Origin: Parcubacteria group bacterium
GTDB taxonomy: Bacteria > Patescibacteriota > Minisyncoccia > Phycocordibacterales > Phycocordibacteraceae
Assembly: GCA_028286605.1 (NCBI GenBank)
Contig: JAQBRE010000002.1
Location: 464,065-528,064, forward strand
Length of the DNA stretch: 64,000 bases
Direction: 5' to 3'
The notes below the pieces were generated by a model that saw only the letters and a list, made by a program, of their open reading frames with translations, did no database searches and was not told where the DNA came from. A program made the position numbers and the translations under genes. Below are positions 12,637 through 15,537 of this stretch, piece after piece. Each line of letters opens with the position of its first letter. Positions within the stretch are counted from its first letter, which is position 1.

Positions 12637-15537
12637 ATGGCAAAGAACAGTTTTGATCATCAGGAGATAGAGAAGAAAGCCCAGGCCAAGTGGGAAGCAT
12701 TGAATATATACGAGAGCGATCTTACGGACACGACGAAAGATCCGTTCTACCTTCTGTTTGAATTCCCGTATCCGTCAGGCGATCTGCATGTGGGGCATTG
12801 GTATGCCTTCGCACTAACCGACATATACGCGCGTTTCCTGCGTATGAAGGGAAAGAATGTGTTGTTTCCTATCGGCTTTGATGCCTTCGGCTTGCCTGCG
12901 GAGAACGCGGCGATAAAGAACGGCGTGAACCCGCGTGATTGGACGTATGCGAACATGGAACGCATGCGTGCGCAGATACGAACGATGGGAACCTCCGTGG
13001 ACTGGAACAAGGAAGTGGTGACCTGCAGCCCTGAATACTACAAGTGGACGCAATGGCTCTTCGCGAAGCTGTATGAGCACAAGCTTGCCGAGCGTCGTAA
13101 TGCATCGGTGAAGTGGTGCCCACATGACCTAACCGTACTCGCGAACGAGCAGGTTATCGATGGTCACTGCGAACGCTGCGGAAGCGTCGTTGAAGAGAAG
13201 TTCCTTACGCAGTGGTTCCTCAAGATCACTGAATACGCCGAACGCTTGCTTACAGATTTGGAACCGCTTCCATGGCGTGAAGATATAAAAGATGCCCAGC
13301 GCGCATGGATAGGAAAGTCTGAAGGCGCGAAGCTTCGCTTCCAGGTGGTGAATGCCGACACGGCGATGGCACCCATAAGCAGTGCAGAAGGCTCAACTGC
13401 AATCGAGGTGTTCACCACGCGCCCTGATACGATATTCGGCGCAACCTATGTAGTGCTCGCCCCGGAACACGCACTTATTGATACATTGATGCCGGTATTC
13501 ACGAATGCAGACGCCGTCAACGCATATCGCGAAACGACTGCACGAAAGACGGAGCGCGAGCGCTCCGAGAATAAGGAGAAGACCGGCGTGCGGCTTGAAG
13601 GCGTAATGGCGGTCAACCCTGCAACGCTGAAAGAGATTCCCATCTACGTCGCAGACTATGTGCTCGGTTCATACGGAACTGGCGCCGTTATGGCCGTACC
13701 TGCGCATGATGAACGTGATTTCGCATTCGCGCAGAAGTTCGATCTCCCTATCGTGCATGTTATTGATCCTGTCACGGGTGAGAAACAGGAGAATCCAACG
13801 GATAAAGCAAAGATTGTCGCACTCGTTGAGAACGCTAAGGGCGAAGTTCTTACCATTCACTGGAAGCCTGAACTTGGCGGGCGATTGCTTGTTGGCGGCA
13901 CTGCAGAAGAGGGCGAAGAGGCAAGCGTAACCGCAGCTCGTGAGATTACAGAAGAAACCGGCTATGCAGACCTTGAACTTGTTGAGCAGGCAGATGAGCA
14001 GGTCCATCATGAATACTTCGCATTCTCGAAGAACAAGGCATGGATAGCGCATTCGACGCTCCTTCACTTCAAGCTGAAGAGCGAGAAGCAGAACGAACAG
14101 GCGCTTGAGGAAGATGAGAAAGGAAAGTTTACGGTTGAGTGGGTTACGCCTGAAGTGGCGGCGCGCGAGATACATGACGAGCTTCACGAATACGTACTAC
14201 AGCGCTTCACGAACTATCAGCCGTATACCGGTAATGGATTACTCCGTAACTCGGGTTCATTCGATGGCCGCAGCAATCAGGAGGTCATGAATGAGATCGT
14301 CGCTGCAGTCGGCGGCGAGATAACGACGAACTATCGCATTCGCGACTGGCTCGTCTCGCGTCAGCGCTATTGGGGATGCCCGATTCCTGTCGTCTATGAT
14401 CCGGAAGGGAATGCGCACCTTGTTCCGACCGAGCACCTACCGTGGCTGCTTCCGGAAGATGTGGACTTTACGCCCGGCGCCGGAGGCGCCGGTAATTCCC
14501 CGCTCGCGACGAGTAAAGAACTTAAAGAGCGCGTCGAGCGCTTGTTCGGCGAAGGCTGGACGCCTGAATATGACACGCTCGATACATTCGTGGATTCTTC
14601 CTGGTATTTCCTTCGGTATCTAGATTCGAAGGACGATCACGATTTCTCGGACCCTGCCATGATGAAGCAATGGCTTCCGGTTAATCGCTATGCCGGCGGC
14701 GCAGAGCATACCACTATGCATCTTCTGTATGCGCGTTTCTTCCAGAAGGCACTGTTCGATCTTGCTCTCGTTCCCACCGCCGAGCCATTTTTCGAACGAT
14801 ACAACCGTGGACTCGTTATGGGTCCTGACGGCCAGAAGATGTCTAAATCGAAAGGGAACGTCATTAACCCTGATGAAGTGGTGGAGAAATACGGCGCAGA
14901 TACTGTGCGCATGTATCTCGCCTTCCTTGGTCCGTACAACGAACCGGGTAATTATCCCTGGAAGCCTGAAGGCGTATTCGCGATGCGAAAGTTCCTGGAC
15001 CGCATCGTCGCCCTTTCCCAGCGCCTCTCGGACGAAGAACCGAATGATGCGACACTGCGCGCCCTTGCTAAGGCAACCGAGAAAGTGGCCCTTGATACCG
15101 AACGCTTCAAGCTGAACACGGCAATCTCTACTCTTATGGTGCTTACGAACGAGCTTGAGGCTTTAGCTTCGGTTCCGAAGAGCGCATATCTTCAGTTGGT
15201 GACGATACTCGCACCCTATGCGCCGCACGTGGCTGAATACCTATTCGAGAGTACGCAGCTAACCAGCACGCATACGGAAATCGATTCCGCGGGTACAAGC
15301 ATCCATCAGCAGCTCTGGCCTGAGGTTGATGAAGCGATGCTGACCAGCGAAACTATCACTATGGGCGTGCAGATCGCTGGAAAACGCCGCGGGGAAGTGA
15401 CGTTGAGCCCTGAAGCGAGCGAAGAAGAAGCGCTTGCGGCAGCCCTTGGGGTGCCAGAAGTGCAGAAGTACCTGGAGGGCCGGCTGCCGGCCCGGGTGAT
15501 ATATGTTCCAGGTCGTATATTGAACCTGATACTCTAG
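12637..15537 (+). CDS. leuS: Leucine--tRNA ligase with an inserted Nudix-box domain
   Basis: HIGH-class motif HVGH (aa 51-54), editing-domain TTRPDT, KMSKS (QKMSKSKG); 966 aa; insertion aa ~385-525 contains exact Nudix box. Confidence 0.95.
   Translation: [966 protein letters not shown]

Follow-up and report, generated by a model that had tools for sequence, protein, structure and literature searches.

A Nudix domain nested in the CP1 editing domain of leucyl-tRNA synthetase across Patescibacteria

The 64,000-nucleotide stretch of a Parcubacteria group bacterium genome analyzed here (contig JAQBRE010000002.1; "the window" in what follows) carries leuS, an uninterrupted open reading frame (ORF) at positions 12637–15537 of the plus strand, which encodes a bacterial-type leucyl-tRNA synthetase (LeuRS) of 966 amino acids with a Nudix domain nested in its CP1 editing domain. 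The protein, identical (100%) to the public entry P0144, "leucyl-tRNA synthetase [Parcubacteria group bacterium]," which lies on a contig of 532 kb, scores 854.3 bits on the TIGR00396 leuS_bact model against a cutoff of 548.4, with the match split in two by a break at residue 388, and its structural model aligned in Foldseek with E. coli LeuRS (4aq7) at a template modeling (TM) score of 0.83. The bacterial LeuRS of known structure (E. coli 4AQ7 and T. thermophilus 2BTE) share its domain order, the HIGH and KMSKS signatures and a CP1 domain with threonine-rich and aspartate motifs. All of these were located on the plus strand of the window and compared among 60 orthologues. The HIGH signature, here HVGH, lies at 12787–12798 (residues 51–54; H51, G53, and H54 invariant), and the N-terminal part of CP1 at 13300–13800 (residues 222–388; Pfam PF13603, profile positions 1–152 of 185, 187 bits). 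Within the latter are the editing motifs TTRPDT (13414–13431, residues 260–265, with the editing residues invariant) and AHDERD (residues 356–361, with D358 and D361 invariant or nearly so). The C-terminal remainder of CP1 follows at 14212–14328 (residues 526–564, aligning with T. thermophilus LeuRS from residue 377 onward and with E. coli LeuRS from 392 onward in chain numbering), then the KMSKS signature at 14836–14850 (residues 734–738; K734, M735, S736, and K737 invariant) and the anticodon-binding domain at 15055–15426 (residues 807–930; Pfam PF08264, 44.8 bits). An earlier note on this DNA had described HVGH, TTRPDT, and KMSKS as intact, and each is present and invariant or nearly so in the orthologues. 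Its TIGR00396 score, class I signatures, and CP1 editing motifs give it full membership of the bacterial LeuRS family; with the motifs for aminoacylation and editing intact, it appears fully functional and still serves as the LeuRS of the cell.

The Nudix domain occupies a CP1 surface loop at 13789–14211 on the same strand (residues 385–525; the residues in excess of T. thermophilus LeuRS are approximately 392–529). The Pfam hidden Markov model (HMM) PF00293 matched residues 393–523 of the full protein at 44.7 bits, and residues 385–525 scanned alone, as the earlier note had proposed, reached 51.1 bits (E = 1.8e-13, profile positions 6–134 of 134), both against a cutoff of 21.1. The canonical Nudix box, GX5EX7REUXEEXGU, spans 13897–13965 on the plus strand (residues 421–443, 23 residues) and gave the single match to the box pattern in all six frames of the window; the earlier note had recognized this box correctly but placed it at residues 421–442 (13897–13962), one residue short. 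The residue at its final "U" position is tyrosine, which is also the family-wide residue there (79% Y among 151 representative domains, these being cluster representatives independent of any search pattern). A putative X-loop specificity motif, Y460-F461-x3-K465, follows at 14014–14031 on the plus strand, with an aromatic pair at +17/+18 past the box and then a conserved lysine; K465 is invariant both in the 60 close orthologues and in 26 diverse domains of the family, and is retained in 83% of the 151 representatives.

An AlphaFold2 model of the whole LeuRS was built from the alignment of 60 sequences and had a mean predicted local distance difference test score (pLDDT) of 84 and a predicted TM score of 0.75. 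In this model the insert (pLDDT 82–94) shows the order of strands and helices of the Nudix fold, forming a predicted alpha/beta/alpha sandwich with the box on a loop-helix-loop and the REx2EE residues on predicted helix 429–441. The structure prediction that had been suggested as a check for a separate Nudix lobe thus returned a Nudix fold rather than none, and the claim that a Nudix domain lies inside LeuS holds both for the full-length HMM match and for the predicted fold. As judged by HMM, box, and modeled fold together, the insert is a full member of the Nudix superfamily.

Alignments with structures in the PDB define where this domain sits. Window residue 391 pairs with A376 of T. thermophilus LeuRS and window residue 530 with the very next residue, Y377; in E. 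coli the equivalent of the insertion site is approximately S366–Q372 (native numbering), where there are about 6 residues as opposed to about 145 in the window protein. In comparison with 4AQ7 and 2BTE, about 138 extra residues therefore replace an otherwise short CP1 loop and form a separate enzyme fold, which agrees with the earlier count of approximately 140. The earlier placement of the insert after the end of CP1 does not stand, since the PF13603 match breaks off at residue 388, having reached profile position 152 of 185, and the NSGSFDG block past the insert still belongs to CP1, so that the Nudix domain is nested inside CP1. CP1 in turn interrupts the Rossmann fold, which gives the window LeuRS three nested levels of domains. 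CP1 is known to tolerate lineage-specific peripheral insertions, named I1ae–I4ae in archaea and eukaryotes and I2b and I4b in bacteria (PMC3747510); those are short peripheral elements, whereas the insert in the window protein is a second enzyme fold. It is, in our assessment, practically certain that the leuS product is a genuine bacterial-type LeuRS, inherited vertically, and that one of the surface loops of its CP1 holds a complete Nudix domain.

Could such an arrangement have arisen from a chimeric assembly or belong to a decaying gene? The reading frame is continuous, and so is the base composition, with a GC content of 0.51 within the insert and 0.53–0.56 in its flanks; the insert is under purifying selection, and more than 100 independent assemblies, produced in different studies, show the same architecture. 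The earlier note had argued that the gene is neither a fusion artefact nor a pseudogene, and with these observations we regard either explanation as having a negligible chance of being true. An intein, a mobile element, or a mis-assembly was likewise considered as the source of the insert and set aside, as the insert contains no Hint or endonuclease signal, is even in composition, and recurs in those assemblies.

The Nudix domain is not peculiar to one genome. In the precomputed Pfam annotation of the 120 closest homologues, which were drawn from NCBI, JGI, ENA, and Logan assemblies and are 60–80% identical and 935–975 amino acids long, PF00293 is present in all 120. When six peptide patterns taken from the insert (EITEETGY among them) were run against a single genome for each species, 111 relatives were recovered, of which 80 loci were kept; almost all of these came from metagenome-assembled genomes (MAGs) labeled as Patescibacteria lineages, namely Paceibacterota/Parcubacteria, Saccharibacteria, Zambryski-, Nomura-, Moran-, Taylor-, Doudna-, and Dojkabacteria, and in nearly all 80 the Nudix segment was colinear within LeuRS by tblastn. 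HMMER, run without such patterns over 1.84 billion cluster representatives, yielded 142 hits, the majority of the long ones being LeuRS, and a word-index search with the insert alone gave one match, a LeuRS fragment. Neither the window LeuRS nor the fragment P0001 had an exact match in a contig index. Taken together, these searches indicate that the Nudix domain in LeuRS is a lineage-wide trait of Patescibacteria, the candidate phyla radiation (CPR); comparison with the LeuS of related genomes, which the earlier note had recommended, thus finds the insert to be lineage-specific and shared across that lineage.

LeuRS with a Nudix domain were also found in MAGs labeled Bacilli, Bacillota, Clostridium, Muribaculaceae, Gammaproteobacteria, and Nanoarchaeota (L027, L029, L030, L032, L037–L039, L042, L043, L055, L066, L068, and L075). 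The LeuRS of these MAGs cluster among themselves and next with those of Patescibacteria at approximately 50% identity, which is not decisive on the labels. Mislabeling is one possible reason; another is that the fusion reaches beyond the CPR.

The pattern of conservation bears on whether the nested domain is an enzyme. Among the 60 orthologues G421, E436, E439, E440, and G442 of the box are invariant and E427 and R435 are at least 90% conserved; outside the box, W502 is invariant as well. Mean pairwise identity is 0.75 in the catalytic core and 0.66 in CP1, 0.455 in the Nudix domain as a whole and 0.66 in its box, and 0.50 in both the anticodon-binding and the C-terminal domains; the insert, being close to the last two, thus evolves much as those functional domains of LeuRS do that are under weaker constraint. 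In loci L001–L080, the conservation of REITEETGY was discounted, because EITEETGY had served as a search pattern and the set is biased by its ascertainment. The 151 representatives are free of that bias, and in them E436 is conserved at 98%, E439 at 99%, E440 at 100%, and G442 at 98%, with R435 at 81% (plus 7% K), E427 at 82%, E494 at 75%, and W502 at 91%. The catalytic motif is, on these alignments, the most constrained part of the insert. As every metal-binding and catalytic residue of the box is under purifying selection, we infer that the Nudix module of the window protein is catalytically competent and probably an active pyrophosphohydrolase.

Mapping of Nudix HMM hits onto LeuRS reference coordinates revealed four insertion sites: site A at about reference position 210, site B at 240–253, site C at 381–526, which is the one occupied in the window LeuRS, and site D at about 590/625–643. 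Some CPR LeuRS contain two Nudix domains or even three, tandem pairs among them (P0007, P0011, P0017, P0018, P0024, P0029, P0052, P0055, P0080, P0090, and P0137 are examples). Further, unassigned LeuRS inserts of approximately 130–450 amino acids were observed after reference position ~587 (L055), between ~587 and ~644 (L066), and after ~240 (L057, L068, and L074).

A coherent sub-lineage of these domains, here called Q-type, has the box GQTxEEAAx[AMTQ]EIxEETGY, in which the glutamate of Gx5E is replaced by Q and the arginine of RE by A, M, T, or Q. Q-type boxes account for 8 of the 72 representatives at site C; in the site-A tandem pair the second copy is of this type too (P0007, P0011, and P0024), as is the single site-A copy of P0017, and in some LeuRS (P0053, P0072, and P0127, at site C) the Q-type domain is the sole Nudix copy. 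Such domains may be non-catalytic or have an altered chemistry. It has to be asked, then, whether the Nudix lobe in general might be a non-catalytic module, either a sensor of nucleotides or other ligands that regulates LeuRS or a structural lobe for binding tRNA or protein. However, the window protein and 57 of the 72 site-C representatives have a complete catalytic box, which is the best conserved segment of the domain, and even the Q-type copies retain the E-x2-EE triad. We consider a non-catalytic role improbable for these reasons.

The domain is found outside LeuRS as well. Locus L040 of a Doudnabacteria MAG (MFEY01000007.1, 4624–7272) encodes a valyl-tRNA synthetase (ValRS; 883 bits on PRK05729) whose embedded Nudix domain shares 46% identity with that of the window. 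Among the 120 closest CPR ValRS only 6 contain PF00293 (P0264, P0280, P0283, P0289, P0304, and P0324), and the insert is missing from relatives whose flanks are 89% identical; such rarity, with insert-free relatives this similar, makes the gain in ValRS look recent and sporadic. ValRS P0374 was seen to carry an ASCH domain (PF04266), presumably in an insert equivalent to the Nudix one. Two isoleucyl-tRNA synthetases (IleRS), L076 of a Dojkabacteria MAG (1–3975) and P0117 (1345 amino acids), contain an embedded Nudix domain at approximately residues 260–410 and a histidine-phosphatase (PGM-like) domain at approximately 660–820, about 250 residues apart. Finally, P0041 (1318 amino acids) is a leucyl aminopeptidase with an inserted GNAT acetyltransferase domain and two related Nudix domains. 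The earlier note thus caught one part of a wider phenomenon: the architecture is real, and it extends to several copies, to four sites of LeuRS, and sporadically to ValRS and IleRS.

In one alternative, the insert is a housekeeping Nudix enzyme of the MutT, NudB, or ADP-sugar type that performs general house-cleaning or salvage for the cell, captured during genome reduction and hitch-hiking in a permissive loop of the essential and constitutively expressed LeuRS without any mechanistic link to leucylation. Other lineage-specific inserts are common in this material (ASCH in ValRS, histidine phosphatase in IleRS, GNAT together with Nudix in leucyl aminopeptidase, and the inserts of L055 and L066), and variable loops serve as the sites of insertion, with site B falling on loop 243–252 of the window LeuRS, which has a low pLDDT. 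That the window encodes no second Nudix and that the best NCBIfam hits of the window copy are NudB and then MutT1 also fit this explanation. On the other hand, it is hard to see why, without a benefit from tethering, the same type of domain should have entered LeuRS repeatedly and independently, using four sites and reaching three copies in some proteins, and why it should be retained nearly universally among the LeuRS relatives recovered, when the equally essential ValRS is only a sporadic carrier. Repeated capture at different sites of LeuRS argues for some such benefit, and we consider a hitch-hiking housekeeping enzyme rather unlikely.

Family affinities were used to ask what the domain might hydrolyze. 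The window Nudix domain weakly matched NudB (27 bits, its best NCBIfam hit), then MutT1, YtkD, and RppH, all far below the cutoffs. In an alignment (A3) of 26 diverse Nudix domains hosted by LeuRS and IleRS, all 26 matched the RppH models, weakly (best E 4.6e-12), ahead of YtkD, NudE, and NudB, and a search of the PDB with the A3 profile placed at the top 2azw, a MutT, the AvrM14 Nudix effectors, and the diadenosine tetraphosphate (Ap4A) hydrolases of Aquifex and lupin. The aromatic pair at +17/+18 past the box and the invariant lysine after it are conserved in A3. The NudH/RppH and asymmetric Ap4A/ApnA hydrolases (E. coli RppH, Aquifex 3I7U, lupin 1F3Y, T. thermophilus Ndx1, and M. tuberculosis Rv2985) have the same box and the same alpha/beta/alpha fold, with the X-loop aromatic residue approximately 17 residues past the box as a possible further likeness, and they gave the most consistent of the weak HMM and profile hits, but at 15–23% identity and with scores far below equivalog cutoffs; moreover, the known enzymes are free-standing, whereas the window domain, a predicted enzyme, is nested in a synthetase. 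These two groups are the nearest named relatives, and hydrolysis of the Ap4A type would fit the weak affinities.

The X-loop sets the specificity of Nudix enzymes and carries a marker tyrosine in the ApnA hydrolases (Dunn, 1999, as summarized in PMC5389931). The principal producers of Ap4A in the cell are the aminoacyl-tRNA synthetases (aaRS), and organisms of every domain of life use Nudix enzymes to degrade it (PMC10148737). Given these roles and the weak family affinities, the most economical hypothesis is that the nested domain is a tethered hydrolase of Ap4A and related dinucleoside tetraphosphates (Np4N). In such a scheme, leucyl-adenylate on the enzyme would react with ATP instead of tRNA, so that LeuRS would make Ap4A and related Np4N. 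The Nudix module, if it lies functionally at the NudH/RppH–Ap4A-hydrolase end of the superfamily, which is the weakest step, would split these dinucleoside polyphosphates in cis. A hydrolase tethered to the producer could thereby keep molecules that act as alarmones or cap precursors low in a minimal cell that may lack hydrolases of the ApaH or YqeK type.

Several observations weigh against this proposal. The window copy scored only 17.5–17.7 bits on the RppH/NudH models (PRK00714), whose cutoffs are 116–118, and thus falls outside that family, and on its profile scores it belongs to no named subfamily tested. The X-loop tyrosine is not invariant in the 60 orthologues, and its offset from the box differs from that of Y87 in human NUDT2 (approximately +22). 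Nudix specificity is, furthermore, notoriously hard to read from sequence or fold, and LeuRS is not known as a strong producer of Ap4A compared with LysRS or PheRS. With approximately 10% of LeuRS-hosted domains being Q-type, and sometimes the sole copy, catalysis would seem not to be universally required, and the related domains of P0041, which is not a synthetase, mark the domain as promiscuous among CPR proteins. Because no family threshold is reached, and because of the Q-type copies and the occurrence in a non-synthetase protein, our confidence in the complete proposal, that the nested Nudix domain is an active, cis-acting clean-up hydrolase with Ap4A and Np4N as its substrates, is low, and we advance it as a tentative possibility.

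Membership of the MutT1 type (NF052459) also failed, with the window copy at 20.9 bits against a cutoff of 475 and lacking the histidine-phosphatase domain; mycobacterial MutT1 (PDB 9CXX) combines Nudix and histidine phosphatase, whereas the window LeuRS has Nudix alone. The two IleRS described above share both of the MutT1 domain types, but at their wide spacing.

The affinity for RppH raises a further alternative, in which the domain would act on RNA 5′ ends, as a pyrophosphohydrolase or decapping enzyme that takes off pyrophosphate or Np4- or NAD-type caps, with LeuRS as an RNA-binding scaffold. RppH similarity fails to separate this alternative from Ap4A hydrolysis, since RppH also hydrolyzes dinucleoside polyphosphates. 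It is weakened by scores that fall far below all family cutoffs and by the textbook fact that mature tRNA has a 5′ monophosphate after processing by RNase P, so that the substrate of LeuRS needs no such activity; we judge it unlikely to be correct.

The location on the editing domain, and the fact that all three synthetase hosts (LeuRS, ValRS, and IleRS) edit, could also point to an extra proofreading site, a function among those suggested in the earlier note, at which mis-activated aminoacyl-adenylates released from the synthetic site would be hydrolyzed. However, an aminoacyl-AMP is an acyl-phosphate with a single phosphate and no diphosphate linkage, which is chemically atypical for a Nudix substrate, and the known aminoacyl-AMP hydrolases belong to the HIT family rather than to Nudix. 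Nudix domains are found, in addition, at LeuRS sites outside CP1, matching the region of the leucine-specific domain. An additional proofreading function is, on balance, very improbable.

Beyond the tethered Ap4A/Np4N hydrolase in LeuRS, a more general proposal can be considered, in which the Nudix domain is a third catalytic center of class Ia synthetases in Patescibacteria, always in LeuRS and sporadically in ValRS and IleRS, and is coupled to the adenylate reaction. This is doubtful at present, but if it were true, the third center would destroy Ap4A, Np4N, or other adenylate-derived nucleotides at their point of synthesis, would explain the repeated capture at different sites of the same enzyme, and would constitute a previously unknown layer of control over aaRS by-products or of alarmone regulation.

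Some further features were recorded in the window and around related genes. About 1.2 kb upstream of leuS, at 11005–11400 on the minus strand, an ORF of 131 amino acids encodes an HNH endonuclease (Pfam PF01844) in a patch of markedly low GC content (0.40–0.43 vs. approximately 0.53 around it), which may be a small mobile or foreign element. The alanyl-tRNA synthetase (AlaRS) of the window (60340–62406, plus strand) has only 688 amino acids, with a class II core and a tRNA_SAD domain, typical bacterial AlaRS being longer; its catalytic-domain match covers 529 residues over 447 profile positions, which suggests an internal insertion. In a Saccharibacteria MAG (L065, CAYVNU010000001.1) a free-standing Nudix homologue of 187 amino acids (5776–6339) lies directly upstream of leuS, in the order metG, a tatD-like gene, the Nudix gene, and leuS, and the contig stops within leuS before the insertion site. 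A metagenome scan with this protein returned mostly generic Nudix genes. The Nudix–leuS neighborhood of L094–L103 was not taken as evidence, as a NudF-like gene is there separated from a Nudix-less leuS by another gene and the proximity was judged coincidental; the sequence of these loci is AT-rich and presumably Firmicutes-like, on our impression.

No published description of a synthetase with a Nudix domain was found in the full-text literature searched, in line with the remark of the earlier note that the architecture was undescribed to its reader's knowledge, and no NCBIfam model of the "exception" type was found for such a protein. The words tRNA and synthetase are absent from the text of the 2017 survey of the Nudix clan, as are Nudix and Ap4A from that of the 2020 aaRS review. 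Automatic Pfam annotations of public proteins already show the architecture, which is thus undescribed rather than undetected. The closest parallel is NCBIfam NF040702, an IleRS with a GNAT N-acetyltransferase domain, which follows the same principle of a class Ia synthetase with an added small-molecule enzyme domain; NF040702 carries GNAT, whereas the type in the window carries Nudix, which sits inside the editing domain and is confined to Patescibacteria.

In summary, the Nudix insert marks a lineage-specific feature of the LeuRS of Patescibacteria, in which a second, apparently active enzyme is nested in the proofreading domain of an essential synthetase across a radiation that holds a large share of bacterial diversity. 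The aaRS have been studied heavily, and their accessory domains have repeatedly revealed new biology, including editing, signaling, and the production of Ap4A. If the Nudix domain acts on by-products of the synthetase, the turnover of Ap4A and other dinucleoside polyphosphates would be physically linked to its source, which would open a direct approach to the long debate over Ap4A as a signal or as a product of damage. Should the domain turn out to be only a hitch-hiking housekeeping enzyme, its repeated capture at multiple sites and in multiple copies is still a clear natural example of the tolerance of CP1 for domain insertion.

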